Positions 1,977-60,413 of a stretch of DNA of 64,000 bases are shown one piece after another (within the stretch, counting starts at the first letter, position 1; every line of letters begins with the position of its first letter). Origin of the DNA: a virus (taxonomy: Duplodnaviria; Caudoviricetes); IMG/VR virus record IMGVR_UViG_3300020049_016712, positions 1-64,000 of that record, one strand, 5' to 3'. The position numbers were made by a program, and so were the translations under genes. The notes below the pieces were generated by a model. The model searched no databases. It was not told where the DNA came from and was given only the letters and a program-made list of their open reading frames with translations.

Positions 1977-2029
1977 TTTACCTCCAATGTGAATTTCGGC
2001 CGCGCTTCCCCGGATCTTGAACCCGAGTT

Positions 2030-5563: not shown

Positions 5564-5626
5564 CTGGTTTGCTCCGTCCGTTCGTTTGCTCAAGACATTA
5601 TATTCACAATTGTTAACCTGTGTCAA
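5564..5626 (-). promoter_or_regulatory. Early promoter TTGACA-N3-GTTAAC...TATAAT plus leader
   Basis: -35 5626-5621, GTTAAC 5617-5612, TATAAT 5602-5597. Confidence 0.75.
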
Positions 5627-12170: not shown

Positions 12171-12430
12171 GTCAGCCTCCTGTTGGGCAATATGGTTACC
12201 AGAACAGGTAGTTTACCAGATTCTGATTTCTCCACCACGAAACGCAGGCGCAGCGGACGCGGACCCTGCCAGAGCCACGCCCCCGACTTGAATTGCTTAA
12301 CTTTTTTGGCCTCTTTAGTCAGGTTAATCAGCTCCCCCAGGGCTTGCTCATAGGTCAACCCGCGAGCCCACCGCTCGCGATAGCGACGCACGGCGTGAGG
12401 TGTCACGAATAATGGTCCAGACGCGCTCAA
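12167..12430 (-). CDS. Small basic protein, RelE/BECR-like RNase candidate
   Basis: VTPHAVRRYRER, terminal VLVTIL; coupled to cysH. Confidence 0.5.
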   Translation of the reverse strand: MSASGPLFVTPHAVRRYRERWARGLTYEQALGELINLTKEAKKVKQFKSGAWLWQGPRPLRLRFVVEKSESGKLPVLVTILPNRRLT

Positions 12431-13179
12431 GAGCAGGCCTCCCGAGCCATCATATCAAGTTCGCGTAGGCGGTCCCGATAGTAGAGACCCTCCCACTCGG
12501 CTCGGCCGTGGCCTGTTCCCCGACCGCCGGCCAGGCCAGCCACCCGGAGCCTATCGCGGTCCCAAATCCCCCCCTGAGTGTATCCGTAAGCCGGGTGCAC
12601 GGGGAGGCTAAACTGCAGTAGGTAGGCAAAGACCTGGGCCGTAGACCAGCGGCCCAGAGGCGCCAACGTGTTGCGGGTGGCCAGGCCCTTCCCGACGCGT
12701 TTTCGCCTGGCGTTAGACTCCTCGGCCCGCACCCCGCTGGCATAGCGGGCCCCGAACCTGGTAGCAGCCTCGGAGAATCCGGCAGAGAGGCTGAGTCGGC
12801 CGGCAGGGGCCTGCCAGGTGCCGTCTGGCTGCGGGGCGCAGTGAGTCACCACTTCCTCGTATGGCATCGGGAAATCGGCCAGGAAGGCGTCTCGCACCAG
12901 TCGGCAATCGGGGTTGTCGCGAGGGTGGTTGCGAACCCAGACAAGCGGCGGCCCATTGTCGGCCCATAGCGTCCAACACAGGTGCGCCAGGACGATAGAG
13001 TCTTTCCCCCAGGAGCAGCCGATATAGTCCGGCCGGAACCGCCGCAGTTCCTCGCGAGCCGCGTACTGCAGCCGTTCCCAGTTGGTGGACCTGGCGACGA
13101 CCCGATCACGCCGACGTAGACGCTCCCACTCGGCCAGGTCGGCCTCCGTGTGGCGCTCGGTGACGATTAGCCCGGACAC
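12427..13179 (-). CDS. CysH/PAPS-reductase-like type IV-B ancillary protein
   Basis: GTG 13179 with GAGGA RBS; SWGKDS PP-loop, SGVRAEES..R, PLGRWST..V.AY, HPAY. Confidence 0.85.
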   Translation of the reverse strand: MSGLIVTERHTEADLAEWERLRRRDRVVARSTNWERLQYAAREELRRFRPDYIGCSWGKDSIVLAHLCWTLWADNGPPLVWVRNHPRDNPDCRLVRDAFLADFPMPYEEVVTHCAPQPDGTWQAPAGRLSLSAGFSEAATRFGARYASGVRAEESNARRKRVGKGLATRNTLAPLGRWSTAQVFAYLLQFSLPVHPAYGYTQGGIWDRDRLRVAGLAGGRGTGHGRAEWEGLYYRDRLRELDMMAREACS

Positions 13180-13805
13180 AGTACCAGTTCCTCGGTCGAC
13201 CGGCGCCAATAGGGGTAGGTGAGATTCCCGTAGCGGACATGGCTCTCGGTCACCCCTGGCCAGTCCGGGGGCAGGTGGCGCATTGCTCGACCGTCGGGAC
13301 TGACCACAGGGAATCCAGGCCATGGCTCGACCACCTCGAATTCCCAGCGTCGGATGCGACCGAGTCCGCAGGAACGCTTCCGGCCCAGGTGGTGGATCGC
13401 CGATAGGCGCCTGCGAACCTCGGCCAGATCGGCCAGCAGGAACCACGTTACCCGGTCCCAGGCCGCGTAGCCAACCTGATATGGTATTCGGAAATGCTTC
13501 TGCTTGCCTGCGGCCAGGTTCACGCGCTTCATTCGGCTGTGGTGAACGGCCTGCTCGACCGGGAAGCGGCGAATCAGATACTTCCGCTCGAGTAGCTCCC
13601 ACTCGACCACGGAAGCACTGGCCAGATGAAAACGCCCTCCCGGCTCGCGCTCGACTGGAACCTCGATTGGAACCAATTGGTCTTCAGTCGTAGCCAGCTC
13701 GATACCCTCCTGGACGCAAACCGCGTAGGCCAGCAATGCGTCGATATGGATCATGTCCATGGCCACGGGTCCCTGCAGGTAGGCTGTTGCCCTCAGTGGT
13801 TGCAT
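13167..13805 (-). CDS. csf3: Csf3 (type IV Cas5 group)
   Basis: IDALLA, LG.KRS.G.G.I..W, R.LP, YPYW. Confidence 0.85.
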   Translation of the reverse strand: MQPLRATAYLQGPVAMDMIHIDALLAYAVCVQEGIELATTEDQLVPIEVPVEREPGGRFHLASASVVEWELLERKYLIRRFPVEQAVHHSRMKRVNLAAGKQKHFRIPYQVGYAAWDRVTWFLLADLAEVRRRLSAIHHLGRKRSCGLGRIRRWEFEVVEPWPGFPVVSPDGRAMRHLPPDWPGVTESHVRYGNLTYPYWRRSTEELVLCPG

Positions 13806-14344
13806 AGCGGCTCCACCATCAGCATCCCAAACCCGTAAGGTTTGCCAGGTCCCAGACCGTCAATGAGGCAGCGCGCCAGTTCGGCCGGGTCGGTGCACTC
13901 GAGAATTCCGTGATAGTCCACCCCGGTGAACGTCAGGGGCAGCCCGTCTGGCTTACGGCCAACCGCCTTGGGCGCCATCCGCTTCCAGACCTCGCGAGCC
14001 ACCCATCCGAACTGGTGGCGCAGGAGCCAACCGGTCCAGTCTTTGTCGGGCACTCTCATCCCGTTTTTGCGGCCATCAGGGTGGACCTTCTTGGTGACGT
14101 TGGCGCGCAAGTGAAACAGGTAGCGCCGGCCGGCAGCGAGTTCCACCTCGACGGGTCGCGAATCCGGGCCGACAACCACTGGCGTTCGGACCCTGGCCAC
14201 CGGACCTTCAAGCCGATAGAGAAGCCTGGCCTCGGCCCGCTTCTGGGCTGGCACCAGGGTCTGCACCTGCCGGTGAATCGAGTCGCAGTCGTATCCCCGA
14301 ACCGGGAACAGTGTTTCCTGTAGGGTTAGAGTAAGCGCCCCCAT
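13793..14344 (-). CDS. cas6: Cas6e-like RAMP endoribonuclease (compact, 183 aa)
   Basis: IHRQV, LLYRLE, YLFHLRANVTKK, WLLR, VDYHGIL, G-rich loop GLGPGKPYGFGML. Confidence 0.8.
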   Translation of the reverse strand: MGALTLTLQETLFPVRGYDCDSIHRQVQTLVPAQKRAEARLLYRLEGPVARVRTPVVVGPDSRPVEVELAAGRRYLFHLRANVTKKVHPDGRKNGMRVPDKDWTGWLLRHQFGWVAREVWKRMAPKAVGRKPDGLPLTFTGVDYHGILECTDPAELARCLIDGLGPGKPYGFGMLMVEPLCNH

Positions 14345-15318
14345 CAGGCCACCACCTTGGCCAGAAACTCCCGAATCCGGTCCTTGCGCTCGGCGATATG
14401 GCGCCGAAACAGCTCGCCCTTGCGCTGGTCCGGTCCAACCAGGTCGAGGGTATCCATTCGCTCGCTGAAGTTGGCCAAGCTCACGTTGCGAGCGTCGATC
14501 GGCACCAGGTGGCCATGGCCAGTCCCCCGCTTGCCACCCACGCGGCAATGGCGCAGAAACGCACCCACCATGACCAGGAGTGTATCCTCGTCGAGCGGCG
14601 TGTAGAGAGTCGCTGTCACCGACCAAAAAAACAGGCTCCCTTGGGCCACGCGCTCATAATTAAAGGGCATCATAGTCGATTTGCTTTTGACGGCAGCCAC
14701 CGCGTCCCGTGATTCACCGGCCGTCTCGGAGTTTAACAGGCGCTGCTCGGCCCCAGCCCGCTCTCCGGGTATCAGGAGCAGGCGCTTGGCCGGGTCGAGG
14801 GTCGGGTCCATCCTGACCCGCTGCACAGGCTCGATGTGGGCTCGGCAGCCGTCGAGTTCGCCGGCGCCCTCCCGCGCCCACTCGGGCACCAGGTGCTCGG
14901 TTTCGCGGCAGACCAGAATAGCCGGGTCAACCTGCAGGCGCCCAGGTATAATCCTGTTTTGCGCACAGCCACCCAACAGACCCAGGGGCGGAATCAGTTC
15001 GGCGAGTTGGCGAAACTCGTCGAGGTTGACCGCACTCCCGCTTGAACCGGTGATCATCCCGCCCGCGAACAACAGGCGAAGAGCGTTCTCGGTCAAGCTG
15101 TCTTGCAGCATGTCGGCGCATTCTAGCAGGCAGTAGGTGCTCGCCTCGCGCAGACCGTGGCGCATCGTGTCTCCCGTCACGATAGGGACTTTGGCCCAAC
15201 GGCCGCAGGGTTGGCGAACCTTCTGGGTCATGATGATGCTGGTGTTGCCCAGATTTTCCTGAGCATGAGCGATTGGTGTTTCGGCTCTGAGCAAAAATTC
15301 AAACCGTTGCTGTTTCAT
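14344..15318 (-). CDS. csf2: Csf2 (type IV Cas7 backbone)
   Basis: TPIAH, VPIVTGDTMRHGLR, LFAGG, LLGGC, GRLQV, GGKRGTGHG. Confidence 0.9.
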   Translation of the reverse strand: MKQQRFEFLLRAETPIAHAQENLGNTSIIMTQKVRQPCGRWAKVPIVTGDTMRHGLREASTYCLLECADMLQDSLTENALRLLFAGGMITGSSGSAVNLDEFRQLAELIPPLGLLGGCAQNRIIPGRLQVDPAILVCRETEHLVPEWAREGAGELDGCRAHIEPVQRVRMDPTLDPAKRLLLIPGERAGAEQRLLNSETAGESRDAVAAVKSKSTMMPFNYERVAQGSLFFWSVTATLYTPLDEDTLLVMVGAFLRHCRVGGKRGTGHGHLVPIDARNVSLANFSERMDTLDLVGPDQRKGELFRRHIAERKDRIREFLAKVVA

Positions 15319-15721
15319 GCGATCCTCCAAGACCTTCTTCCAATGCTTCTGATTCGGTTAACTCCTGTTTTCGTTCTTTTGATTCCTGGGCCCGGAGTCG
15401 GCCCATGGCAATCAGGTAACTGTGTTCGTTCTCGACCAGGTCGAGCCATTCGTCGGGGGTGCAGACGTGGCCAACGGTCTCGGCCAGTTTGCTAATCACC
15501 AAAGAGCGTGAGTTGCTCGGGGCTGCCAAACCCAGCGACCGGCTCAGCGTCGTGACCCACTCGGCCACGCTGGTGCTCGTTCGGGCGGCCACCCGAATTC
15601 GGTCCTGGAGTTGGTCCCAGTGTTTGAGCGGATTGGCTCCGCTTGCCAGATACTCGCGTCGGACCTCCATGATCAGGTCCACTGTCCGGCCCTCTATCTC
15701 CTCTTTCTGATCGTTGCGCAT
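15299..15721 (-). CDS. cas11: Cas11-like small subunit
   Basis: ATG 15721 with AAAGGAGG RBS; all-helical; canonical position between csf1 and csf2. Confidence 0.75.
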   Translation of the reverse strand: MRNDQKEEIEGRTVDLIMEVRREYLASGANPLKHWDQLQDRIRVAARTSTSVAEWVTTLSRSLGLAAPSNSRSLVISKLAETVGHVCTPDEWLDLVENEHSYLIAMGRLRAQESKERKQELTESEALEEGLGGSHETATV

Positions 15722-16454
15722 CGCGCCTCCTTTCAAGTTCCACTTCGTCTCGTTGGGCTAGCCAGAGGCACAGGGCGAACCACCCACCTCCGCGCTCGCG
15801 AGCCCAGTAATGTTCGAACAGGCGAGCCCAGCGAGCAGTCTCCCCTGTCATGTAGGTCCTGGGCGAATAATCGCCGGTCTCTATCTCCGACTTGGTCACT
15901 CCCCCGCTGAGTCCGTCCACCATCGCGTCGAGCAACTCCCACGACCCCATTTCCACGTCGAGTTCCTCGAATCGCACCTGGCCCCATTGTCCGGGATTGA
16001 GGCGCGCGTAAGGAATGACGTGTTTTTGACCACTGTCGGCAATAGCGGCAAACCAGGGGGGAGTTTTCGGGCCACGCAGCCACTCCAGGATAGCTGGTTT
16101 GTCCCCTTTGTTGGCGGTGACGTATCCACGGCGGTCCCAGAGGTGCGAGTAAAGGCGCAGGTTTACCCCCCGTTTTCCTGGAGGCGGATCGGGGTGAAAT
16201 CCGGGAACAATCGTCCAGGAGTGAGCCCAGACGCAGGCCTCGCAGACGTGCTGTGATGCCGTGCACGAGACTTTGTTCTGGTCGGTGAAGCTCGAGCCTT
16301 GCCACTTGTCGAACAGCATACCTCTGGGCGCCACGCAAGCGCACATCCGACATAGTGAGTCCTCCAAAGGAGAACATCCAGCCTGAACTGGTGAGCCCGC
16401 CAGTTGGTGCAAAATCGCCGCCGGACTAACCGGTTTGGAAAAAGTTTCAATCAT
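15492..16454 (-). CDS. csf1: Csf1 (type IV Cas8-like) with overprinted C-terminal tail
   Basis: CRMC, SSFTD, CEAC, NK..K, IADSGQKH, LWLAQ; ends QLTLFGD. Confidence 0.85.
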   Translation of the reverse strand: MIETFSKPVSPAAILHQLAGSPVQAGCSPLEDSLCRMCACVAPRGMLFDKWQGSSFTDQNKVSCTASQHVCEACVWAHSWTIVPGFHPDPPPGKRGVNLRLYSHLWDRRGYVTANKGDKPAILEWLRGPKTPPWFAAIADSGQKHVIPYARLNPGQWGQVRFEELDVEMGSWELLDAMVDGLSGGVTKSEIETGDYSPRTYMTGETARWARLFEHYWARERGGGWFALCLWLAQRDEVELERRRDAQRSERGDRGPDSGPDHGGPTRVSGKRSQSAQTLGPTPGPNSGGRPNEHQRGRVGHDAEPVAGFGSPEQLTLFGD

Positions 16455-16665
16455 AATTCTTGTCGGCGCCTTCAGGAATGGATTTCAAGAAGTCATTATC
16501 GCGGCCTGGATGCAATTCAACGCTAAACCTCTTGGGCTTCGACCTGATCTTTTCGACCCGCAATAGTCCAGATTCGAGTCCTAATTTCTCGAGTTCGGCC
16601 GCGAAGGGGGCGATCAACGTCTTCCGAATCGCGGAAGGTCCTGCTAGAAAAACTTTCATCTTCAT
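16447..16665 (-). CDS. Small protein linking the helicase and csf1
   Basis: Start overlaps the helicase stop (ATGA); its end overlaps the csf1 start. Confidence 0.6.
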   Translation of the reverse strand: MKMKVFLAGPSAIRKTLIAPFAAELEKLGLESGLLRVEKIRSKPKRFSVELHPGRDNDFLKSIPEGADKNYD

Positions 16666-18410
16666 GGAACGATCTTTATTTCTCCTGTTTCGATAAGTCG
16701 GGTTAGCGGGTCGTCGAGGTAACCGCGCGGCAGAACGCGCGACTTGAACTCGACTGGAAAAATATTCTTGGTTCTGGGATTTCTCCAAAGTCGCTCAAAT
16801 TGCGAGTCGATCATGTAGGTCCAACACCAATCGTGGCCGCTTCTAGGGGCCCTCCCTGCCCCTTGAACCAGTTCGCGAATAGCCTGAACCTCAAACCAGT
16901 GTCGGCCATCGTAGTGGCCCGTTTCCGGGTCTTTGTAGGCGAAACGGGCTTTGATTTGCGGATCTCCAAGGTTGGGCCACGGAACTTTTGCCCAAATCTG
17001 AACACGGCAATCATCGTCCGGGAAGTCGTATCCGCGCGAAATCGATGACCCGAAAATGACCGAGGCAGAGTTCTTCCTGAACGCATCCAGGGCGCTATTT
17101 TTGGCAGCCTCGGTTTCGTAGGTCAAGCACATGCGTTCACTCAGGATCTGGCAAATCGTCGACTGCAACGAATGCGCCAGATCGTTGGAGACGCAATGCA
17201 CGACCGTCCGATACTGAGGATGTCGCATGAGAACCCACAAAACAGCAGCAACCAACGGTTCCCAGGCGTCTTGAATGAAATTCCCGCCATCGTCCCGAGC
17301 GTCCCAATCCTCTTTTTTGCGATTCTTCGTGACATTCACCGAGGAGATCCTGATAATGGGTGAACGACGCGCATCCCATGGCGCAGGAGCCTCAATCCAC
17401 TTGATTTTTGCGCCTTCAAGACCGACATCGCGAATCAACTGGTCGGGGTCGATGATGGTCGCGCTCATCAAGAGCATCGGGTATCTGTTTTTGATGAATC
17501 GCTTAGAGACAATGGACGGAACGACGGGCTTGAGCGTCACCGACCCATAAGACGAAACCGAGTAAATCCAGTCTGGTGTTACGTCCTTGAGCGAGGCATA
17601 AAGGCGGTCAGCGGATTGAGAGGCTTTCACTAGCGAGTCGGAAACGTCTTTTCCCTGCTCTGCTAACGTCTGCTTGAGATTGTCGCAACGCTCTTTTAGT
17701 GCAACCTCGAAGGCCGCAAGCCACTTCGGCCACCGCTCTTCGATGGGCTCGTCGGGCTTACTTCGCTTTGGCGGTTTACGATGCTCTTTCGGCAGATTGA
17801 CCATCGAGATCATCGATGACGAAATCGAGACCGTCAGCGCACCCATGAGGACGCCTTCTAGCGAGTCTGCCTCGTCGATGACCGTTAACGGTCGTCTCCA
17901 AAAAGGATTATCAAGTGGCCGCTTGTCTAGTCCTGTATACCGGATAGAGGCCAACCAGTACGCCGTGTTCAAGACCACCGGAGAGGATGAACCGTTTTCA
18001 ATCCGAGTGCGGGCCGTGTGGCGCACCTGGCGATACTCACATGGGCCGGACTGGCAATAATTCCCCTTCACGCATAACCCGCAATGAATGTCGGGATAGG
18101 CGTGCTTCATGTCCGGACAGGCGTAATTGGCCTGGCCTTGCACCACAATGGAATCAGGAAAATTGTCGCAAAACTGCTTCTGGAGCGGCTTGTGCGGGGG
18201 CGCGTAAACCAGCGTCAGACCAAGCCGCTGGGCAAGCATGTAGGCAACCAGCGATTTGCCGAAACCGGTCGAGGCCTGCAATACGATAACCTCGTACCCT
18301 TCCTCGATGGCCAGTTCCATCATGACCAGGACGTAATCCTGAGCCTCGCGGATGGACTCTACCCAATCTGGCACCATGACCGTGCCAAGCCCGGCCTGAA
18401 CTTCCTTCAT
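16662..18410 (-). CDS. DinG/XPD-family SF2 helicase with Fe-S cysteines
   Basis: ASTGFGKS, Cys cluster, IDEAD, LLMSAT, GYDFPDD.CR, QGAGRAPR. Confidence 0.9.
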   Translation of the reverse strand: MKEVQAGLGTVMVPDWVESIREAQDYVLVMMELAIEEGYEVIVLQASTGFGKSLVAYMLAQRLGLTLVYAPPHKPLQKQFCDNFPDSIVVQGQANYACPDMKHAYPDIHCGLCVKGNYCQSGPCEYRQVRHTARTRIENGSSSPVVLNTAYWLASIRYTGLDKRPLDNPFWRRPLTVIDEADSLEGVLMGALTVSISSSMISMVNLPKEHRKPPKRSKPDEPIEERWPKWLAAFEVALKERCDNLKQTLAEQGKDVSDSLVKASQSADRLYASLKDVTPDWIYSVSSYGSVTLKPVVPSIVSKRFIKNRYPMLLMSATIIDPDQLIRDVGLEGAKIKWIEAPAPWDARRSPIIRISSVNVTKNRKKEDWDARDDGGNFIQDAWEPLVAAVLWVLMRHPQYRTVVHCVSNDLAHSLQSTICQILSERMCLTYETEAAKNSALDAFRKNSASVIFGSSISRGYDFPDDDCRVQIWAKVPWPNLGDPQIKARFAYKDPETGHYDGRHWFEVQAIRELVQGAGRAPRSGHDWCWTYMIDSQFERLWRNPRTKNIFPVEFKSRVLPRGYLDDPLTRLIETGEIKIVP

Positions 18411-18474: not shown

Positions 18475-19218
18475 CTACTTTTTCGGCAATAATTTTCTAG
18501 CCTCTGCCAAAGCGTTCAGGCACCGTGTTCTCCATGGCTCCCGCTCGGCAATGAGGATGCGCTCCTGTTGCTCGATAAACTCCAACAATGCATCCCAATC
18601 CTCTTGAGCGACCAGGATGTTCGTCGTGGCCTCGAGGTCTTTCATGCAGTCAGCATGATACTGCGCCTCGGCGAACTTCTGTTGAGAGTATTCAATCGAG
18701 ATGAATCTAGGACTGCGCTTGATGCCGCCATCTTTGTCGAACCAGCGAATCCGCTGATAGAAAGCGTCACGACCGAAATCAGAATAGGTCTGATATTCCG
18801 AGCACTCGCGAACGATGGTTTCGATTTGCGACCTGAAAAATTCGGGAATCTTCAAGCTCGTGGTATGAGTGCGCCCCTGATATTTGTCGAACCGGTAAAC
18901 GCGCTCAGGAGAAAATTCGTCTTGCTCCGTCTCATGCGGGGTCCACAACACATTCGTGAGGGGGCCAGGACTGTGGTTGATTCCGCTGCCCGGCGGGAGC
19001 GGGGGAATCGGAGGAGGTAAAGCCAAGTCTTCAATGTCCTTTCCTGGTCTATTTCGTCTGCGGACCTGAGATCTTCGACGCGACCGCTTGAATCCTTTCC
19101 CATGTTCCGGGTTTTCCGCGTGAAGTTTTTTCCATGATTCGAGCACGGTTTCGGAGGGAGTTCGAGGCGGCGACGGAGAACTTTCCCAGAAAAAACGTAC
19201 AGTACTGAAGTACCTCAA
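18475..19218 (-). CDS. Hypothetical DNA-binding protein with ribbon-helix-helix-like segment
   Basis: TTSLKIPEFFRSQIETIV...YSDFGRDA; next to the origin-like repeats; start uncertain. Confidence 0.5.
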   Translation of the reverse strand: MRYFSTVRFFWESSPSPPRTPSETVLESWKKLHAENPEHGKGFKRSRRRSQVRRRNRPGKDIEDLALPPPIPPLPPGSGINHSPGPLTNVLWTPHETEQDEFSPERVYRFDKYQGRTHTTSLKIPEFFRSQIETIVRECSEYQTYSDFGRDAFYQRIRWFDKDGGIKRSPRFISIEYSQQKFAEAQYHADCMKDLEATTNILVAQEDWDALLEFIEQQERILIAEREPWRTRCLNALAEARKLLPKK

Positions 19219-19545
19219 CTGCTCAGTACATGAAGTAATTCAGTACATGAAGGTACTCAGTACCTCAGTACACTCATGAACTCAGTACTCTCATGTACTG
19301 TACGATCCATGAGACTCATGAGATTCAGGTACTCAGTACATGAAGGTACTCAGTACTCATGCAATCGTCGGTATACGGTATTACCGTATCGGTGATACCT
19401 CCAAGAGCCAGAATACGGTAATACGCTAATACAAAACTACGGTATTATATAGGCTAAATTTGTAGTGTTGCACAACGTTTTGTACCCAGAGGCTAGAATA
19501 CGATAACACGGTAATACGCTAATACGAGAATACCGTATTATAAGG
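19197..19545. repeat. Iteron-like repeat block, putative replication origin
   Basis: 15 GTAC in 19197-19356 and 8 CATG in 19229-19361; direct repeats cagtacatgaaggtactcagtac (19241, 19334) and acggtaatacgctaatac (19415, 19508). Confidence 0.7.
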
Positions 19546-19569: not shown

Positions 19570-19628
19570 TTGACAAAGGTTAACGTTTGTGCAATAATAA
19601 GGCATCGAAAGAAACGGAGCAAACGAAA
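19570..19628 (+). promoter_or_regulatory. Early promoter with GTTAAC operator and CGGAGCAAACGAAA leader
   Basis: TTGACA 19570, GTTAAC 19579, AATAAT 19593. Confidence 0.8.
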
Positions 19629-19838
19629 ATGACGAACCTTCACCCTCGCGAAAACAAATCTTCCCTGGACAAAGAATTTTTTGACTTCGTTAATGCGGGC
19701 GACCTGACGAGCGCCCGCCTGCTGGCTTGGAACTGGCAACTGCAGTTCCCCTACTCCAGCAAAGAAGGAAAAAAATGGCATGACCGCTACGAATCGGTGG
19801 TGGAAGAGCAAATTGTTCTTGGCCAACTAGACGAATAG
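19629..19838 (+). CDS. Small early protein
   Basis: ATG 19629 after the leader; own promoter and terminator. Confidence 0.7.
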   Translation: MTNLHPRENKSSLDKEFFDFVNAGDLTSARLLAWNWQLQFPYSSKEGKKWHDRYESVVEEQIVLGQLDE

Positions 19839-22669: not shown

Positions 22670-22720
22670 TTCCGTTTGCTCCGTTCCTGAAAGTGCAGGG
22701 CCCCGAAGGGCCCCGGTTGT

Positions 22721-22876
22721 TTATTCCCGTCCGGGAAGTCCGGCCAGGGTGCGGCAGATAATCATCTGCGATTTGGCCGTGCGGCTCAGGTTGTGCCGCG
22801 ATTTGTGCAGGCGCCCGATATAAAAACTCGAGTCGCGCAGGTTTTCGGTTAGGGTCCAAGGCTTCAGGTTCGTCAT
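22721..22876 (-). CDS. 51-aa early protein (MTNLKPW...), absent from the ORF track
   Basis: ATG 22876 after a GGAG leader and consensus promoter; TAA 22721. Confidence 0.65.
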   Translation of the reverse strand: MTNLKPWTLTENLRDSSFYIGRLHKSRHNLSRTAKSQMIICRTLAGLPGRE

Positions 22877-32403: not shown

Positions 32404-32435
32404 CCGATTTCCGCGCATGCCGAAATTGAACCTTT
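32404..32435 (-). promoter_or_regulatory. Late-gene motif AAAGGTTC-N3-TTCSGCATGCGCGGAAATCGG
   Basis: One of five strong copies, all upstream of minus-strand late-region genes. Confidence 0.7.
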
Positions 32436-32478
32436 GAGTACGATGGGAAGCGATTTGTCAAATCAAGCCAGAATCGCA

Positions 32479-40593: not shown

Positions 40594-40602
40594 TGATAAA
40601 GG

Positions 40603-40665
40603 TTTCCGCGCATGCCGAATGCGAACCTTTGGGGTATTGACAACGGTTAACGGTAGTCATATAAT
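40603..40665. promoter_or_regulatory. Back-to-back late motif (minus, 40603-40630) and early promoter (plus, TTGACA 40637, GTTAAC, TATAAT 40660)
   Basis: Both consensus motifs present. Confidence 0.75.
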
Positions 40666-47495: not shown

Positions 47496-47527
47496 CCGAT
47501 TTCCGCGCATGCGGAACGGGAACCTTT
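47496..47527 (-). promoter_or_regulatory. Late-gene motif
   Basis: ccgatttccgcgcatgcggaa-cgg-gaaccttt. Confidence 0.7.
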
Positions 47528-47529
47528 GG

Positions 47530-48546
47530 CTAAGAGACAGGGCCTTGAGTCTGGCCTCTGATGGTCAGATTAATCCCGAAGCACGATACTCGAAGATTCG
47601 GATCGCCTAGCGGATGGTCCAAATCGTCTTCGATTGCCTCGATCAGGGTGGATTCAATCTCGGTGAATCCATTAACTCCAAGTTGCGGCGCAAATCCGGT
47701 GCGCGCAAACGGGTCGACGAACCGCTTCAACGCCCTCAGAGTGCGCTCGTGATGGTCCTGGCCCGGAACCTGAACCGCGTAATAGCGAATCTCGTAGACA
47801 TACTCAGCATTCGCTTTGCAGGCACCGATTGTTGCAGAATTAGAATTGCCCGAAACAGCGCGCAGGGTGGCTTTGGGTAATCTGGTACGCGGCAGAGACG
47901 GATAAATCAAATCCTGAGTTGGGCGCCCTGTCCAACCCCAGGAAACCAGACCGAGCGGACTCACCACCGATGAACTCAGGAATGTAATGAGCGCGTCGCC
48001 AACCTCCTTGAGTTCCGACTCGTGGAATCCGGTGTCCCCCTGGTCTGTTCCCGACGTGCCCGAAACAGAACGTGTCTCCTGCACCTCAATTTCGAAATCG
48101 GCGCGCGCGACATGGCACCAAACTCCATCCACCAGTTCGCCGTATCCGATGGTCCCGAAACTTGGCAGGCCATGCGTGTTGCAAACTCCTCCGAGCGTCC
48201 TGTCACCAGTTTCCAGATCCTCGGAAATAGCGTCGATGATATCCTGGAAATCGTCCTCGGTGAGATACTCGGAATCGTGACTCAGATACCCTGCCAGTGC
48301 CACCCGGAATCGCGTCACGATGACATCATCAGACTCTTCATGGTCGGTCGCCGTGCGGCCCATCCTGGTGATCTCCCAGAAATGCACGGTATCGGTTCCC
48401 GCGCCTTCATCCTCGCCGAACAACGTGCGCCAATCGCGCGAGGTCGGGGAACCGTCCGTCCATTCCTGGCGAGAATGGCACTGCGTTCCCGAGGCGGCAG
48501 CAATGCGAGCCGCCAGAGCCGTTCGGATAGCTGACCAGTCAGCCAT
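47530..48546 (-). CDS. Tail terminator-like protein, apparently two tandem domains
   Basis: Head-tail module position. Confidence 0.55.
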   Translation of the reverse strand: MADWSAIRTALAARIAAASGTQCHSRQEWTDGSPTSRDWRTLFGEDEGAGTDTVHFWEITRMGRTATDHEESDDVIVTRFRVALAGYLSHDSEYLTEDDFQDIIDAISEDLETGDRTLGGVCNTHGLPSFGTIGYGELVDGVWCHVARADFEIEVQETRSVSGTSGTDQGDTGFHESELKEVGDALITFLSSSVVSPLGLVSWGWTGRPTQDLIYPSLPRTRLPKATLRAVSGNSNSATIGACKANAEYVYEIRYYAVQVPGQDHHERTLRALKRFVDPFARTGFAPQLGVNGFTEIESTLIEAIEDDLDHPLGDPNLRVSCFGINLTIRGQTQGPVS

Positions 48547-51622: not shown

Positions 51623-52633
51623 TCAAAAAAGAGTATATTGCTCCGCGTCCGATTTCAGGCAGGCTGGAGAGAACCACAGGCGTTCGCGGTTCGGGTTGTC
51701 GTTACCCGATTTGCTCTGGCCCGAGTATCCTCCGGACGCTTTCCATGCCACGGTTTCCCATCCTTTGGCCTCCAGGCGTTGCGTCCAGGGTCCATCGTAT
51801 CCGCACAAGCAGATTCTCAAGAGCGGGTTCGAACCGTTCTCGAGGCAGTAGTCGACAACCTCATGGAACAGATTGGCGTCATCTTCGCCCTCGGCATAAA
51901 CGTCGGTGCATCGGTCATCGTGGGCGTAGGGCGGGTCGAGGAACATTCCAGTCATTCCGTTATGGCTGGTTGGGGTTGGTCCGCAAACGCGCTTCCAGTC
52001 TCCCGAGCATACTCTTACACGCCGCAACCGGTTGGACAATTCCTGCATGTAGTCTAGCAGCGAATCCGATGATGCACGGTTGATTCCTTGACCACTATCT
52101 CCCAGATGTGGGAGTTGCCGGTTGATGCCTTGGCCGCGATTGCCAAGACTTGGAAGTTGCCGCTTGATTCCGCCTGATTTTTCCATCTTGAGCAAGCGTC
52201 CCTCTGAAACGCGCCATGGGCCATTGCAGTAACACCAACCGCTGCCAATCCAGGAAGCGATCCCCCAGAGCCACCAACCGGCAATCATGGGATCAAAATA
52301 CTCGGGATCGCCCTCGAGACGCTCGACCAACTCGGAACGGCGCACGTGTAGGTAATGATGCCGCGCATGCAGGTCGTTTTCATTGATCGGCCAATCCGCC
52401 CAATGCGTAACCGATTCAGGGTCGAGCGCGATGGCTCGCCACACATTGCAGATAAAACCATCTTTGTCGTTAACGGTCTCGAGTTTGCCCTCCCAATCCG
52501 GGCGCCCGAGAAGCATCGCCAGCGAACCTGCGAACGGCTCGACATAGTTTGGCGGATTACCGAGGCGCGGCCAAACCTCATCAACGACTTTCGATTTCCC
52601 GCCAAACCACGGGAATGGGGCTCTGAGCGTCAA
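51623..52633 (-). CDS. Dam/D12-class DNA adenine methyltransferase
   Basis: PWFGGKS, EPFAGS, NDKD, FLDPPY; ends QYTLF. Confidence 0.9.
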   Translation of the reverse strand: MTLRAPFPWFGGKSKVVDEVWPRLGNPPNYVEPFAGSLAMLLGRPDWEGKLETVNDKDGFICNVWRAIALDPESVTHWADWPINENDLHARHHYLHVRRSELVERLEGDPEYFDPMIAGWWLWGIASWIGSGWCYCNGPWRVSEGRLLKMEKSGGIKRQLPSLGNRGQGINRQLPHLGDSGQGINRASSDSLLDYMQELSNRLRRVRVCSGDWKRVCGPTPTSHNGMTGMFLDPPYAHDDRCTDVYAEGEDDANLFHEVVDYCLENGSNPLLRICLCGYDGPWTQRLEAKGWETVAWKASGGYSGQSKSGNDNPNRERLWFSPACLKSDAEQYTLF

Positions 52634-54586: not shown

Positions 54587-54618
54587 CCGATTTCCGCGCA
54601 TGCCGAAAGCGAACCTTT
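54587..54618 (-). promoter_or_regulatory. Late-gene motif
   Basis: ccgatttccgcgcatgccgaa-agc-gaaccttt. Confidence 0.7.
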
Positions 54619-54629
54619 TCCAAGTGGTG

Positions 54630-54866
54630 CTAGGGGAATATGCCGCGCAACTGGTGAGCCGTCTCGACTAACGACTGGGCGCGAATATGGTGCGCGTAAT
54701 GCACCAGGGCGAACAGGCTGCGCTCGTTGCAATCCAGGACCTCATAAGCCTCGATGACCTCGGATAGGCTAAACTCGAAACGCGGAACATCGGGATAGCC
54801 GGCCAACCGCTCGATAACCCACAGATTAGAATCGGGAATTGGGGTTGAAGATTCTTCGCCGAACAT
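54630..54866 (-). CDS. Small hypothetical protein
   Basis: Same-strand gene run. Confidence 0.4.
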   Translation of the reverse strand: MFGEESSTPIPDSNLWVIERLAGYPDVPRFEFSLSEVIEAYEVLDCNERSLFALVHYAHHIRAQSLVETAHQLRGIFP

Positions 54867-55803
54867 TACGTCCCGTGGAAGCGAACCCGGTGTCCCAATT
54901 GCCGCGCACGGAATGGGCCCTTGATCGCTGCCCGATGTGGTTTTGATACTGCTGCTCCAGCATGGCGGCCATAGACTTGTAGGAGGATGGTTTCTGGTTG
55001 TAGGCCACTCCGTCAGCTCCCAGCCTGGCTCGTTCTGTTGCGCGCGAGTAGTATAGCGCAGCCATCCGGGCCCGGTCTGCGGCCATCAACAGGGCAACAC
55101 CCTCCTTGTCGTTAGCAGACAGGGTCGAGGTCGATGCCGTCAGCGTATGCGGGCCGCGATACCACAACAGGAACGATTGCCCAGGGTCGCCCTCCAGGAA
55201 GCGCAAAAACGACTTCTCCGAGCCTCCCGAATATCGCTTCTCCTGGGTCCAATCCGACTTGTCGAGCAGATTCGAATCGCCATCGGTGGAAATCGGGGAC
55301 TCAATATCCACCACCGAATGAGTGAGATCGTCCCACCCAGAAACAAGCGACTCGAGGTCATATAGGCCCGAGTCATTGTTCGACAGCGATACGACATGCT
55401 GGGCCGGCATATCCCGAGAAAACTTCAATACTGCAGCCTGAATAGAGCGGCCCTCGGCATTATCTAGAGCCAAGCAGTCGGCATAATCTCCAGTGGAGTG
55501 ATTGGCCTCCGTGGTCGAATTATAGGCCCGCGAGACCGTCAGCACAGGCGAAGTGGACTTGGCCGTTACCGCAACCTGTTCCGTTCCGATCAGGAACACG
55601 TCACCTACTCGGGCAGTGTCATAAAATCGCGTCTCGGCAGCCGCAACAGTCTCCCGCGAACCCTGGTCGAACGCTCGGGCTCGCAGAGAACTTCCTGAAA
55701 TGTTCAGGGCGGCGGTCAGGATACCGGACAGCATCAACGGAACAACACCGTCATCTAGCGGCGCGAGGTCCCGTGCACGATTGCGAACGTCGATCAGATC
55801 CAT
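54826..55803 (-). CDS. Head-tail adaptor-like protein with an inserted beta domain
   Basis: Head module position; degenerate late motif at 55816-55831. Confidence 0.6.
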   Translation of the reverse strand: MDLIDVRNRARDLAPLDDGVVPLMLSGILTAALNISGSSLRARAFDQGSRETVAAAETRFYDTARVGDVFLIGTEQVAVTAKSTSPVLTVSRAYNSTTEANHSTGDYADCLALDNAEGRSIQAAVLKFSRDMPAQHVVSLSNNDSGLYDLESLVSGWDDLTHSVVDIESPISTDGDSNLLDKSDWTQEKRYSGGSEKSFLRFLEGDPGQSFLLWYRGPHTLTASTSTLSANDKEGVALLMAADRARMAALYYSRATERARLGADGVAYNQKPSSYKSMAAMLEQQYQNHIGQRSRAHSVRGNWDTGFASTGRNVRRRIFNPNSRF

Positions 55804-55982
55804 CTACTGTTCAACTTCCGCGCAGGTTGAATATTTGCCTACAAACCCTGGCTTAACAACCCAGTGCTCGCACCAGTTCCACAGCCCTACAGTGATAGAA
55901 ATCACATTGCACAAACCGTCTTCGGCCCGATTAGCGCACGATGCGCAGTTCTGGGATACAGGCACTTCAACCTCACATTGGC

Positions 55983-56022
55983 AAAAATAAAGGGCCCTAG
56001 AACTCGCATCCTGGGGCCCTTT
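55983..56022 (-). terminator. Intrinsic terminator, T-tract on the minus strand
   Basis: AAAGGGCCC...GGGCCCTTT followed by ATTTTT. Confidence 0.75.
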
Positions 56023-56100
56023 CAGGCTTTACCTGTTCTGTTCGGAGCAAACGAAACGAACCAGTCTTGGCTTCGCAGGTGACGCAAGCGAAGCGATTGC
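56023..56100 (-). ncRNA. Putative solitary repeat-spacer small RNA antisense to early leaders
   Basis: 7-bp stem GCTTCGC/GCGAAGC, then CAAGAC, then TGGTTCGTTTCGTTTGCTCCG, then the terminator. Confidence 0.5.
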
Positions 56101-56164
56101 CTTATGCCCTGAGTATTCCCCAGACTTGAAAAAACTCCTTTTTCACCTTCAATTTTCTTCAATG

Positions 56165-56193
56165 TGGACAAACGTTAACAGATGTGATACGAT
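56165..56193 (+). promoter_or_regulatory. Early promoter variant TGGACA-N3-GTTAAC...TACGAT
   Basis: 17-nt spacing. Confidence 0.6.
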
Positions 56194-56199
56194 ACCCAT

Positions 56200-56559
56200 G
56201 TGAGCAAACTCCGGTGTTACGAGGGGCGCGCATGGCCAGCCCTTCACGACTTGTCTTATCGAAATTTAGGCCATCAGGTCTGCTATTTTCCCGGGTCATT
56301 GGATGGTTGCCCTGAAAAAATTGCTATTTGTCACGGGTGCAATTACGGCTCTAGCATAGGCTGGTCAAACGTAAAGGTCATCCCTGTTTCCCAATTTTAC
56401 CAGGGCAAAAGGGAATTCCATTTTTGCATCAGTTGTGACAATATGGTCGTCTCGGGAGTGATTCTCATGATCCCCATTTACTCAGATTACGCGCCGACCC
56501 GAACTGAATTGATGGACCTGTTCGAGGCTCACAAAATCTTGCGAGAGTTGGCGAAATGA
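56200..56559 (+). CDS. Island protein ending in ELAK
   Basis: CHGC/CISC; ATGA coupling. Confidence 0.65.
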   Translation: MSKLRCYEGRAWPALHDLSYRNLGHQVCYFPGSLDGCPEKIAICHGCNYGSSIGWSNVKVIPVSQFYQGKREFHFCISCDNMVVSGVILMIPIYSDYAPTRTELMDLFEAHKILRELAK

Positions 56560-56878
56560 GAATATTTCACGCATTGTCATGTTCCAGGTATGGACATCAG
56601 GAAATCTGGTTCAATGACTCCTGGTTTCCCATCGAACCTCCGTCGAGCCTCGCAATCTATGTTGGTGATGGAGACATCATTTTCGTTGACGAAAACTCGA
56701 TAGAGCACATAGTGTACAGTCCTGGCAAAACCTATTTCAAGATTTCTGGCCACCTGATTCCAGCAACCAGCGTTTGGGTAGCCCCGTTTGATTCAAAACT
56801 ACTATCGACTTATGGGCCCGGCGCGAATTTGCCGAGAAGTTCGAAGCCGTCATGATCATGAAAGAGTTGGCGAAATGA
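56556..56878 (+). pseudogene. Island protein with a one-base frameshift near 56795
   Basis: One extra A in TCAAAACT restores ...FEAVMIMKELAK* with an ATGA overlap at 56875. Confidence 0.55.
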
Positions 56879-57312
56879 ACATCGTGGTTAAGGAACTGCG
56901 CTGGCGATACCGGTGCATACTAGGGTGGGCCGACAGGTGGGAAGATTCCAAACTGCAACGAGTAGTCGTTACCTCGAATGAGTTGTGCCTGACTTCCTAC
57001 GGACCTGACTTGAATCTGTATTTCCCCGAGATCGACCGCTTCCTATGCACCAGGATGAATCCTGTCATGGTTCAAACGGTTCGATTTCGCGGGAAAACCT
57101 ATAGCGGATTTCGATTCAATCCCGTCGACGAATACGCTCAAATGATACTGGCTGCGGCAGTGACATCCCATCCACCGCCGTATGAATATTTCGCCATCCC
57201 GGTCTTCATTATCGACCACCCAGAACCAATGTCAAAGTCAGATCAGACCGCGTTCCGAGAGTTCTCAGAATCGGTCATGATCATGTACGAGTTGGCAGAG
57301 CGCAACGACTAA
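56875..57312 (+). CDS. Island protein ending in MYELAERND
   Basis: ATG 56875; terminator hairpin 57325-57345. Confidence 0.65.
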   Translation: MNIVVKELRWRYRCILGWADRWEDSKLQRVVVTSNELCLTSYGPDLNLYFPEIDRFLCTRMNPVMVQTVRFRGKTYSGFRFNPVDEYAQMILAAAVTSHPPPYEYFAIPVFIIDHPEPMSKSDQTAFREFSESVMIMYELAERND

Positions 57313-57379
57313 CTGAAATGGAAAAGGCCCCTCAACTGAGGGGCCCTCGGTTATCCGCCAATCAGGCTCGAAGCCTGGA

Positions 57380-60067
57380 TTAGCTGGAGGCGATGGAAGC
57401 CTGCGCTTTGCGGTGGTCGGTGAAGACCATCCCGTAAACCTGGCGGCATTTCCAGGTATACTTGTCTCCGGTGAACGCGTCGCCGACCATCGGGTCATCC
57501 TGCAGGAGAATCTGAGGATTCTGCTGACCGCCCAGGAAGCCGACTTCGACGGGCTTGTCTGCGAACATGAACCAGTTGTCGAGGTCGAAACCGAGGTAAT
57601 CGCTCTGGATCGCGATTCCCGAAAGTCGACCGGTGGAAACGTCCGGATAGATGGCCGAAACGTCGTTGTTTCCGCCTCCGGGCTTGAGTCGCGAGTTGAG
57701 AATCTGGAACATCTCGGCCCGCTTCGTGTGAGGAACCACCAGTTTGACCATCCGAGGGTTCAGGAAGGCTCCGAGTTGCTCGACGCGAGCCTCGTCGGAG
57801 TGCGTTGCGGCGGTCGTTCCACCAATCCCGCGAGTCACGTTGGCGTAAGATCCGCCCGAAGAACCCGGCAGGGAGCCCACCAGCATCTTCTCGGAGTCGA
57901 TCTGAATCACATCACCTTGCTTGAGGAACGCGGTGATGTCGGTGATTGCGGTTCCGTCCCTCTTCGCCAACTGAATCTCGGTGGCGCTGGTGCTACCAAT
58001 CGCGGCCTCGAGGCGCAGAACGTTGGCGAACCGGCGCTGGTTGGTCAGTCGCTCCCACATGTCGGCAACCGGCTGATATGCCAGGGTGTCCGATGCGAGG
58101 TTGTCGTGAGCCGAGTTGAAAATCGACACGGCGTCGTAACTCACGTCGGCTCCGATGGTCCCACCGTTGTTCGCGATGGCCGTCTTCCAGACCAACTCGT
58201 TCAAGGTGTGGACGCAGGAGTTCGCGATCTCCTGGGGCATCGCCTGGAGTTTGTCGAGGTCGTCGTTGACGATCATCTCCCAGGTCAACTGCACCAGATA
58301 GCCCTTTTTTGCAGCGGTGTAGGTTACCTGCTCGTCGGCAGGGAATCCGGCCTGCAGGTAAGTCCCTGCCTCGGCAACCGTTGGAACGATGCCGAGACCG
58401 CCCACCAGAATCCGCTTCTGGGTTTTGAAGTTGTCGATGGGCACGATGGTCGCAACCTCTTGCCAGTGCGCTTCGGCCTGATTGTAGGCCTGCAGCAACG
58501 CGCGCTCGGTAGAGTCACCGAGAACGTAGGTCAGGTCAGCAGTCGTTGCCTCGACGATGCGGCCCGGGCCGTGCTGGCCCTTCTGCATCTGCCAAACATC
58601 GGCGTCGAACCACTCGCGGAAGAAGCCGCGAATCGAAGGCCGAATCGGAACCAGTCTATAAAGCTCCTTGTCGGACTCCTTGAGGCCATCGGCTTCTTGC
58701 CACTTGTAGCCCATCATCGCGTCGGCCCACTTTTTCATGCGGTCGACCTTCTCGGCTCCAACGGACACGCGAACACCGGCGCCCTCGGATTCGGGAGTTC
58801 TGCTGAGACTTGCCACGATCTTCCTCTGCCCTTCGATGGCCTCGCGCAGGTCCTCGGCCTTAAACGTGCGGCCGGAGAACTGGCGCTTGAGTTCGTCGGT
58901 CGCAACCGAGGGAAGACCGGACTCCCGCAACTGCTCGTTTAGGAGCATGCGGCACTCGATCAGTTCGGTGCGCTTCGCGGCCTCCAGCACGGCTTTCTGG
59001 GCTTCGGTCATGGCCGGCTCAGGAGCGGCCGCAGCCGGTTGCGCAACAGGGGCCGCAACGGGAGCCTCGGGAGCAACAGGAGCCGCAGGAGCGGCCTCAG
59101 GAGTCTTGGAGGCTGGCTCCGCAACCGGTTCAACCGGCTCGGTGGTCGCCTCTTTGTAGGAGTCCATACAAGCCTTAATAGCCTGCATGGCGCCCTCCAT
59201 GTTGTCTTCCTCGACCATTTTCATGATCTTCTTCTTTTTGTCGTCGGGAGTCTTCATCTCGGCCAGGCGCGCGCCCAGTGCCTCATGAAGCTCCTCGGTG
59301 CTCGACTCCTCCAGGTTGCCGGTATACTCCAGCGAACGGAGCCCACGGACAAGCAATTTCCGATTCATTTTTGCAGCCTCCTTAACGGCTGGTGTATTTT
59401 CGGCCCCCAGGGCCTGCTCTTTGGCTCCGCCCGAAGGCGACTCCAAACTTTTCTTCAACTCTTGTGCGGTGATTCCAAATGCGGAATCCAGCGTCTCGAG
59501 TCCAGACTGCATCGAGGCCACGAGGCGCAAAAACTTGCCTCCAGCAGCCCCTTTGGTAACCACCGTCAGTTCCTCGACTCGGGAAATTTGGCGAATCTCG
59601 CGCACCGGCTGGCCTTCCGCATAGCCCAGCGTGTGCGGGCCTTCAGCCTCGATACTCAACTCTAGGAAATCAGCCGAACCAGACTCGGCCGCGCGCATCA
59701 GAGTGTTCCGCAGCCAGTCATCGGTAACGTGCAAATCTGCGATAATCGCGGGGACCGTCTTGCCCTGTTTCGCCGAATCGCTTTCCCCCATCCGCACGTT
59801 CCGCAATACGCCAACAACATTCCCGGCTACACCCTCGGGAATCAGGCGGCGCACATCCATAGAGGCGTGGTCGAATCCGTCGCCTCCGCCCGGGCGCGCA
59901 AACTGGTAAATAGCAACCGGCTTACCCTCAAAAAGCGGAACAGCCTGGCGCAACACCTCGGGCTTGTAGAGATTCTTGTTGGCCGAAACCCCAGCTTCGA
60001 TCACGACCACTTGCCAGACTCGACCCTGGGGGTCCTGGGCCCGCTCGACAAGGCGCGCGTTCGGCAT
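57380..60067 (-). CDS. Fused prohead protease/scaffold/major capsid protein (Mu gpT-like capsid)
   Basis: N-terminal S..NLY..EVL...F.G and ELSI..EG...V..GAAGG; helical scaffold; C-terminal E.Y.A.K.G...LTWE.IVNDDL and VEVGFL.G.Q.P. Start probably 60067 because the late motif lies at 60103-60134. Confidence 0.85.
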   Translation of the reverse strand: MPNARLVERAQDPQGRVWQVVVIEAGVSANKNLYKPEVLRQAVPLFEGKPVAIYQFARPGGGDGFDHASMDVRRLIPEGVAGNVVGVLRNVRMGESDSAKQGKTVPAIIADLHVTDDWLRNTLMRAAESGSADFLELSIEAEGPHTLGYAEGQPVREIRQISRVEELTVVTKGAAGGKFLRLVASMQSGLETLDSAFGITAQELKKSLESPSGGAKEQALGAENTPAVKEAAKMNRKLLVRGLRSLEYTGNLEESSTEELHEALGARLAEMKTPDDKKKKIMKMVEEDNMEGAMQAIKACMDSYKEATTEPVEPVAEPASKTPEAAPAAPVAPEAPVAAPVAQPAAAAPEPAMTEAQKAVLEAAKRTELIECRMLLNEQLRESGLPSVATDELKRQFSGRTFKAEDLREAIEGQRKIVASLSRTPESEGAGVRVSVGAEKVDRMKKWADAMMGYKWQEADGLKESDKELYRLVPIRPSIRGFFREWFDADVWQMQKGQHGPGRIVEATTADLTYVLGDSTERALLQAYNQAEAHWQEVATIVPIDNFKTQKRILVGGLGIVPTVAEAGTYLQAGFPADEQVTYTAAKKGYLVQLTWEMIVNDDLDKLQAMPQEIANSCVHTLNELVWKTAIANNGGTIGADVSYDAVSIFNSAHDNLASDTLAYQPVADMWERLTNQRRFANVLRLEAAIGSTSATEIQLAKRDGTAITDITAFLKQGDVIQIDSEKMLVGSLPGSSGGSYANVTRGIGGTTAATHSDEARVEQLGAFLNPRMVKLVVPHTKRAEMFQILNSRLKPGGGNNDVSAIYPDVSTGRLSGIAIQSDYLGFDLDNWFMFADKPVEVGFLGGQQNPQILLQDDPMVGDAFTGDKYTWKCRQVYGMVFTDHRKAQASIASS

Positions 60068-60102
60068 CGCAATGGTTTCGTAACGTAAACGTTTCACGGG
60101 TT

Positions 60103-60134
60103 CCGATTTCCGCGCATGCGGAATACGAACCTTT
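60103..60134 (-). promoter_or_regulatory. Late-gene motif
   Basis: ccgatttccgcgcatgcggaa-tac-gaaccttt. Confidence 0.7.
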
Positions 60135-60413
60135 TTCAATCATTTCGTGAAACAAACTCAACTAGACAGGGTAGAAGGAAACTTCCAGGCCTCGGCGAAT
60201 CCATTACCTCGCAACCAAACAAACTCCACAATCGAAGGGCCTCGGGACCAACCTCCTGGGGCTTTTCCCTTAGCAGGCATGGGCTCAGTTGCTCGGTTTT
60301 GGAGGTTTATCCGCGTTTGCGTCTGCGGTGATGCCGGTTGATGAACCAGTCCTCGAAAACCACGGTGGACGCGACGACGGCCAATGCGGCAATGACCATG
60401 ATGAGGAATGACA

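Follow-up and report, generated by a model that had tools for sequence, protein, structure and literature searches.

A hairpin-bounded, terminated anti-leader between two virion genes as a candidate antisense RNA against the early leaders of a cas-bearing phage

Between the capsid gene and an adaptor-like gene of this phage, the minus strand carries a single element in which a perfect hairpin, an inverted copy of the leader that the early operons have in common and a strong intrinsic terminator follow one another. The reading that fits it best, and which we hold tentatively, is a terminated, hairpin-bounded RNA that would pair with the early leaders through its anti-leader. The order of a 5' hairpin, an unpaired complementary stretch and a 3' terminator resembles that of trans-acting antisense RNAs. 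Phage antisense RNAs which mask ribosome-binding sites exist, among them sar of P22 and c4 of P1 and P7, which acts on two sites of the icd-ant leader.

The window that we analysed is the first 64 kb of an IMG/VR virus record of 86,005 bp with 56% GC, nearly all genes of which lie on the minus strand. The cas genes of this phage, which is probably a phage-plasmid with type IV and Cas12 systems, are real (Table 1). A field of dense short direct and inverted repeats at 19200-19545 (CTCAGTAC/ATGAAGGTA units, then AATACG units) adjoins two divergent operator-promoters; it is iteron-like in appearance and a possible replication origin of such a phage-plasmid. A 42-nt tandem repeat (2.3 copies, 77% matches) was also seen at 52077-52171, within an ORF with a D12 adenine methyltransferase domain. 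No relatives of the phage were found by blastn against phage records. A search for related loci gave zero matches with the 325-aa adaptor-like protein and only matches of about 30% identity with the capsid protein; tblastn of the neighbouring proteins on these capsid loci found nothing, and a word-index protein search with the 325-aa protein returned only the protein itself. Exact-pattern scans for the element, leader, promoter and hairpin in viral, metagenome and genome contigs gave chance matches with one exception, the contig CAYZHI010000345.1 of a Caldilineaceae MAG, which has 54 nt of promoter in common with the phage: this stretch (1972-2024) is 81% identical to the promoter and leader at genome position 83001 (TTGACA-act-GTTAAC-...-GATAAT-...-GAGCAAACG). 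The rest of the contig has no protein similarity to the phage, and the match gives a faint clue to the lineage of the host, or to some related regulatory system.

An earlier note on this DNA, made from its letters, had described a stem, a CAAGAC, a spacer-like stretch and a terminator facing the minus strand, and all of them are found at the positions that it claimed. Two of these parts carry little information. Perfect 7-bp hairpins number 148 in the genome (both strands; about one locus per 1.2 kb), so that the 5' hairpin is at chance level, and the 6-mer CAAGAC is uninformative because the genome holds 56 copies of it. The terminator is a stable GC-rich hairpin (dG about -18.6 kcal/mol) with a U-tract directly after it on the transcribed strand, as expected of intrinsic termination, and it is among the strongest terminator-like sites of the 86-kb genome. 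For the minus strand its U-tract obtains a tail score of 4.42, against 3.05 for the plus strand; the terminator of the capsid gene scores 4.37. Since both strands fold almost equally well (-48.3 vs -48.2 kcal/mol, z about -3.4 and -3.5), it is the U-tract that decides the strand. The terminator begins 22 nt past the anti-leader on the minus strand, with the small CAGG/CCUG hairpin placed between them, and in the predicted fold the anti-leader is mostly unpaired between two hairpins. Rfam searched at the gathering score gave zero families in the whole window, and cmscan of 55600-56500 with E up to 10 gave only chance terminator matches, none of them to C4. A 15-nt inverted repeat around the element (55974-55988 and 56152-56166, 80% complementary) was dropped as being at chance level.

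Table 1. Features of the element, of its neighbourhood and of the early and late control regions (positions in the window unless marked as genome)
Feature	Position	Strand	Remarks
5' hairpin, GCTTCGC / 11-nt loop / GCGAAGC	56094-56070	minus	perfect 7-bp stem; single copy in genome
CAAGAC linker	56069-56064	minus	proposed 'handle'
Anti-leader TGGTTCGTTTCGTTTGCTCCG, 21 nt	56063-56043	minus	reverse complement of early leader
Small hairpin CAGG-UAAAG-CCUG	56035-56023	minus	in MFE and centroid structures
Terminator hairpin AGGGCCC...GGGCCCT	56020-55991	minus	extended stem with one mismatch
Terminator U-tract TTATTTTT	55990-55983	minus	
53-aa Cys-rich ORF	55804-55965	minus	six Cys; GAGG 5 nt before GTG
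325-aa virion gene	54826-55803	minus	likely head-tail adaptor; clear coding signal
Degenerate early promoter/operator TGGACA-aac-GTTAAC-N8-TACGAT with leader (GAGCAAAC...)	56165-56232	plus	promoter part 56165-56193
Three-gene early cassette	56233-57312	plus	within low-GC island; driven by 56174 promoter
Sigma-70-like promoter TTGACA-16-GATAAT	57208-57235	minus	11/12; no GTTAAC operator; faces the element
Terminator of capsid-protease gene	57326-57349	minus	
Fused protease/major-capsid protein	57380-60139	minus	
Late motif	60103-60140, 54587-54625, 47496-47535, 40599-40635, 32404-32440	minus	
Early promoter copies	2903, 5612, 22922, 51485	minus	
Early promoter copies	19579, 25926, 40646	plus	
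Early promoter copies beyond the window	genome 72764, 80747, 83001	minus	
Degenerate early promoter copy	56174	plus	TGGACA/TACGAT
Example target leader	2853-2882	minus	two registers of 13-nt complementarity
Example target leader	19607-19629	plus	14/14 complementarity over SD
Possible paralogous module in sense orientation	22684-22745	minus	stop codon, GGGCCC hairpin, TTTCAGG, CGGAGCAAACG as RBS of 76-aa gene
Cas12u1/f-like protein (cas12m)	414-2102		
Type IV module	12427-18410		DinG, Csf1, Cas11, Csf2, Cas6e-like protein, Csf3, CysH-like protein

The early control module of the phage consists of a promoter of sigma-70 consensus, TTGACA-N3-GTTAAC-N8-TATAMT, and the leader GAGCAAACGAAACGGAGCAAACGAACGATG about 7 nt after it. 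The genome has 11 clear copies of this module, the copy at 56174 being degenerate. A near-palindromic operator common to these promoters, TTGACA-N3-GTTAAC-N3-TGTCAA, covers the -35 to -10 region at the promoter positions of Table 1 (as 19552/19579 in the one case), and its sequence suggests that, as in P1, a single dimeric repressor governs dispersed promoters, here at least 11 of them. At 173-201 the operator recurs as a degenerate GTAAC variant.

On the plus strand the element has the sequence CGGAGCAAACGAAACGAACCA, which copies the early leader and ribosome-binding site, and complementarity to the leaders follows automatically from its being an inverted leader copy. This complementarity is real and far beyond chance. 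The matches that had been claimed, 14/14 at 19615-19628, 13 nt at 2857-2869 and at 2868-2880 and several shorter ones, which we place at 5567-5591, 18416, 22673 and 51453, were all confirmed, and beyond the window we found 14/14 matches at genome 72729-72742 and 82964-82977 and a 13/13 match at genome 72718-72730. With up to two mismatches the core 14-mer GGAGCAAACGAAAC occurs 8 times (0.58 expected), and 16 translation-initiation regions contain at least 9 contiguous complementary bases, compared with 0.76 in shuffles. These counts of contiguous pairing were used in place of RNAduplex energies (49-nt core against 60-nt initiation regions), which did not discriminate, as shuffled cores scored equally well. 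The element thus has what is sought in a trans-acting sRNA, accessible complementarity to translation-initiation regions. It also keeps the exact 14-mer consensus, which only two of the real leaders keep.

Could the leader copy simply be functional on the plus strand? There is no ATG, GTG or TTG 5-13 nt after its GGAG, the nearest plus-strand TTG, at a distance of 19 nt, opens a frame of 19 codons, and to the left of the copy no plus-strand promoter was found. Judged by its sequence, it cannot act as a ribosome-binding site. Among the leader copies of the genome it stands alone in having no start codon and no gene behind it; each of the others is followed by a start codon. A 49-aa minus-strand ORF (56022-56171) and two plus-strand ORFs of 72 and 96 aa were rejected for their negative coding scores and lack of an SD sequence, and tblastn found no paralogs of the ORFs around the element.

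The element belongs to a low-GC island at about 55.8-57.35 kb (46-52% GC, with flanks of 56-62%) which sits between the capsid gene and the 325-aa gene. The latter is likely a head-tail adaptor gene: the ESM-Atlas look-alikes of its product are phage proteins (feature scores 0.97-0.98, TM 0.55-0.66), and among the clusters to which these belong are some with the SU10 head-tail adaptor family. This is a lead and not a proof; the protein has no Pfam match with E up to 10, and its AlphaFold model, built from the single sequence, was unusable (pLDDT 33). The genes on the right of the element had been reported to lie on the plus strand, and this holds for the cassette at 56233-57312, ahead of which we found an early-type promoter with an AT-rich, UP-like stretch (56126-56164) upstream of it. 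A minus-strand RNA which enters the element from the right is therefore antisense to this plus-strand cassette. The three plus-strand ORFs of the island score near zero on the phage codon model; at least one of them, of 119 aa, ends in an ...ELAK-type tail which is common with proteins elsewhere in the genome, with a 20-aa match at 74464-74523. On the left side, about 17 nt separate the U-tract from the start of the 53-aa ORF, whose stop codon TAG abuts the ATG of the 325-aa gene; this gene appears to be translationally coupled to it. With a neutral coding score and a sub-threshold Pfam match to 'Crisp' (E 0.005), the 53-aa ORF may be a real small gene or just a coupling ORF.

From where, then, would a minus-strand RNA come? 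The earlier note had found no clear promoter, and neither did we: 55990-56200 contains no convincing minus-strand sigma-70 site, the promoter of its own that is expected of a trans-acting sRNA being absent, and in 56100-56165 only a weak AATACT -10 is visible. Each late operon of the phage is preceded by the motif AAAGGTTC-N3-TTCSGCATGCGCGGAAATCGG, which in its extended form, AAAGGTTC-N3-TTCSGC-ATGC-GCGGAA-ATCGG, has an internal inverted repeat and, by its sequence, might serve as an RNA element or as a promoter used by a factor specific to the phage. This motif is not present on the minus strand of 55990-56200 either. A stretch upstream of the element, GAAAAAGGAGTT...GGGGAAT, was considered as a degenerate late motif and rejected, since the TTCCGC/GCGGAA inverted repeat is absent from it. 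The adaptor-like gene at 55803 has no late motif, and there is no sigma-70 promoter between the terminator and the start of this gene. With no promoter to itself, this gene needs minus-strand transcription that comes from the right through the element, and it is thus probable that late transcription of this strand crosses the element. Another possible source of minus-strand RNA is the operator-less promoter at 57208-57235. It is the only site in the genome with a score of at least 11/12 outside the operator-type early promoters, while about one such site is expected by chance genome-wide; it lies within the 3' end of a plus-strand 174-aa ORF and shows what resembles a decayed operator, with GTTCTG in place of GTTAAC. 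From its position and direction it would drive a 1.2-kb antisense RNA over the cassette, ending at the 55991 terminator.

We hypothesize that the element forms the 3' end of a minus-strand transcript, in which the single-stranded anti-leader would be held between two protective hairpins. RNA polymerase would come in from the right on the minus strand, either by read-through from the capsid late operon, or from the operator-less promoter at 57235, or from an unrecognised promoter in 56100-56165, and would traverse the reverse-oriented early cassette in antisense. Most of the polymerase would halt at the 55991-56020 hairpin and its U-tract, while the fraction which reads through would express the 53-aa ORF and the adaptor-like gene. 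Once terminated, and perhaps trimmed to the hairpin at 56094, the RNA would measure about 110 nt, and its exposed GGUUCGUUUCGUUUGCUCCG could pair with the leader common to the early operons in either of two registers, one at the mRNA 5' end and the other covering the Shine-Dalgarno sequence. Such pairing may block initiation or mark the duplex for cleavage, so that early translation would drop once late transcription runs. It is probable that a minus-strand RNA with the anti-leader is made and that it mostly ends at the terminator; we infer its production, its stability and the effect of its pairing from an anatomy, a complementarity, a terminator and a gene layout which are themselves observed. 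The earlier proposal of a small RNA is thus upheld in part: the anti-leader is predicted to be single-stranded between hairpins, the terminator serves the minus strand, the leader copy is an orphan and the layout of the genes favours minus-strand transcription, but the promoter of a stand-alone transcript was not found. No recognisable promoter directly upstream and no Rfam family speak against the antisense RNA, and two terminators in series may leave little read-through RNA.

Nearly as likely as the antisense RNA is an alternative which the earlier note had itself named, that of a leftover plus-strand leader. According to it, the leader and ribosome-binding site are a passive scar of a gene lost when the island was acquired, rearranged or inverted; the hairpin and U-tract would be an ordinary terminator, which lowers the expression of the adaptor relative to the capsid and insulates the late genes from the cassette, and any anti-leader RNA would be an inconsequential by-product. 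The compositionally distinct island, placed exactly between two core virion genes, agrees with such a history, as do the missing dedicated sRNA promoter, the abundance of 7-bp hairpins and the shortness of the identity, which is expected of an orphan ribosome-binding site because real leaders have only the motif in common. Moreover, GGAGCAAAC is the preferred ribosome-binding site of many further genes of this phage, late ones included, and for this reason the inverted remnant of any of them looks like an anti-leader and would seem complementary to 'all leaders'. At 22.7 kb, at the junction between the early genes for 51-aa and 76-aa proteins, the same order of stop codon, GGGCCC hairpin, TTTCAGG and CGGAGCAAACG forms a normal intercistronic junction of the sense strand, and descent from such a module may alone explain the sequence of the element. 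The complement of this module (in full a stop codon, the GGGCCCttcgGGGCCC hairpin, TTTCAGG, CGGAGCAAACG and GTG), too, gives an anti-leader, then a hairpin and a T-rich tail. The similarity of its flanks to those of the element has a p of about 0.01 against shuffles, but it is modest and not the best match genome-wide. A scar would also have required several events: a plus-strand gene must once have stood left of the promoter of the cassette and have been lost precisely from its start codon onwards, perhaps with an inversion besides. The copy is as near to the consensus as the best real leaders and shows no decay, and the single-stranded position between hairpins, on the very strand served by the terminator, would be left unexplained. 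It is unlikely, on the other hand, that the element acts in cis, as a leader or attenuator of the minus-strand operon of the 53-aa ORF, the adaptor-like gene and a 78-aa gene, in which an early terminator sets the level of read-through. The RNA would then start at a promoter of an unrecognised type in 56100-56165, and its anti-leader would either have no trans target of consequence or would sense early-leader RNA so as to modulate termination. In the other three plus-strand early cassettes (19.6, 25.9 and 40.6 kb; the candidate at 25.9 kb is weak) the shared divergent region has a recognisable promoter or late motif for the minus-strand genes, and one is thus expected beside the element, too. 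A possible -10 AATACT at 56117-56112 would place the RNA start about 10 nt before the first hairpin, and some 17 nt separate the terminator from the SD of the first ORF. This candidate promoter, however, has no -35 or extended -10 and failed the promoter scan, and the folds show no alternative anti-terminator pairing with the terminator stem.

The proposal that the element supplies a guide RNA for the type IV/Cas6 complex or for Cas12m was not supported. It supposes a solitary repeat which is cut by the Cas6e-like protein and an RNA used by the type IV (Csf) complex or Cas12m on the early leaders or their DNA, which seems to us very improbable. Some circumstances do recommend it. The phage encodes all the type IV and Cas12u1/f-like proteins of Table 1; it has a Cas6 but no CRISPR array was found in the 86 kb, so no source of guides is visible; and a stem followed by a short handle is a geometry compatible with Cas6 cleavage. 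Type IV-B complexes have also been reported to assemble on non-CRISPR RNA (PMC7937560). However, where a CRISPR array would show at least two near-identical repeats around its spacers, the hairpin with its 'handle' is found once; it is absent elsewhere in the 86 kb and from IMG/VR, and no repeat stands 3' of the 'spacer'. Its 11-nt loop differs from the tetra- and pentaloops of Cas6e and Cas6f substrates. The match to the leaders extends over just 14 nt, from position 4 of a 41-nt 'spacer', and the cas genes are 38-54 kb away. The earlier note had linked the element to cas12m through CAAGAC. This 6-mer does occur twice upstream of cas12m, as CGACAAGACCA, but its frequency in the genome reduces the link to chance level, and beyond it the element has nothing in common with the units found there, which are built of a 4-bp stem, a 7-nt loop, a 10-nt linker and a CGAC at the end. 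The type IV operon, being free of repeats, offers nothing for comparison. Three such degenerate hairpin units ending in CGAC, two of them continued by AAGACCA, lie directly upstream of the Cas12-like gene at 2020-2200 on the minus strand and match nothing elsewhere in the genome. It would therefore be very surprising if the hairpin were a Cas6e-like substrate and the RNA a built-in, partially matching guide of the array-less type IV complex, a DinG/Cas11/CysH hybrid, against the phage's own early leaders.

A second anti-leader-like stretch was observed 18.6 kb past the end of the window. It reads CGTTTGTTCCGTT (about 82651-82663; sequence confirmed) and is framed by a perfect 23-bp inverted repeat with GGTGGCGCCACC in it (genome 82596-82726, minus strand). 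The site separates two genes of one early operon and stands shortly before a GGAGCAAACG ribosome-binding site. This weaker stretch can pair with the part AACGGAGCAAACG of the leaders by way of one G-U pair. By itself it is close to what chance would give: several registers were tried, and each 13-mer has an expectation of about 0.1.

How does the element compare with known systems? By analogy, it may work like P22 sar or P1 c4, outside the Rfam C4 family, though we would put this at somewhat less than an even chance. The c4 RNA of P1 and P7 and the CI RNA of P4 (Rfam C4) are likewise small RNAs of phages or phage-plasmids which pair in trans with more than one leader site and block the ribosome-binding site or cause termination, and the genome of P1 also has many dispersed operator-controlled promoters. 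Unlike members of this family, the element has no covariance-model match with E up to 10; c4 and CI are processed from the transcript of their own targets and have two sites in one operon, whereas the putative single-copy element would face a leader on at least 10 operons. It shares with P22 sar and other cis-encoded phage antisense RNAs the character of a short terminated RNA complementary to a translation-initiation region, but sar overlaps its single target gene, while the element is unlinked to its putative targets and matches each over 9-14 nt. The prophage sRNA IsrK of Gifsy-1, whose terminator read-through gives an mRNA (PMC4825925), is similarly a short hairpin-terminated RNA directly upstream of genes which are reached only by read-through; The promoter of IsrK is defined, however, and its target is the long isoform of IsrK itself, whereas the targets proposed here are other operons. 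With RNA anti-CRISPRs and solitary repeat units (PMC10651486) the element has in common a single hairpin in a phage genome which also carries cas genes, and a short partial match to promoter-proximal sequences would follow the principle of crRNA-like regulatory RNAs (bioRxiv 10.1101/2024.12.27.630466). These are known, however, by their similarity to real repeats, while the hairpin of the element resembles no repeat compared and has no second repeat flanking it. As regards RNA anti-CRISPRs, the comparison covered the phage's own units, which the hairpin does not resemble, and IMG/VR, which has no copy of it. Lastly, a GC-rich hairpin and U-tract, placed at the border of an insert of distinct composition among late genes, could be an ordinary terminator at the boundary of a moron or island; such terminators do not normally carry an exact inverted leader copy ahead of them.

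If the element is a scar, it would be a record of how reverse-oriented early cassettes get spliced between virion genes, and a caution that a common ribosome-binding motif gives any inverted remnant the look of a regulator. A guide, if that very improbable reading were true, would mean that a CRISPR effector has been domesticated as the early-to-late switch of the phage. The known phage antisense RNAs have one or two sites of action. If our favoured reading of an anti-leader antisense RNA is true, one small RNA would address the leader common to at least 10 dispersed early operons and would thus be a master switch, at the RNA level, for the whole early regulon of this phage. Such an RNA would be a by-product of the late transcription that must cross the element.
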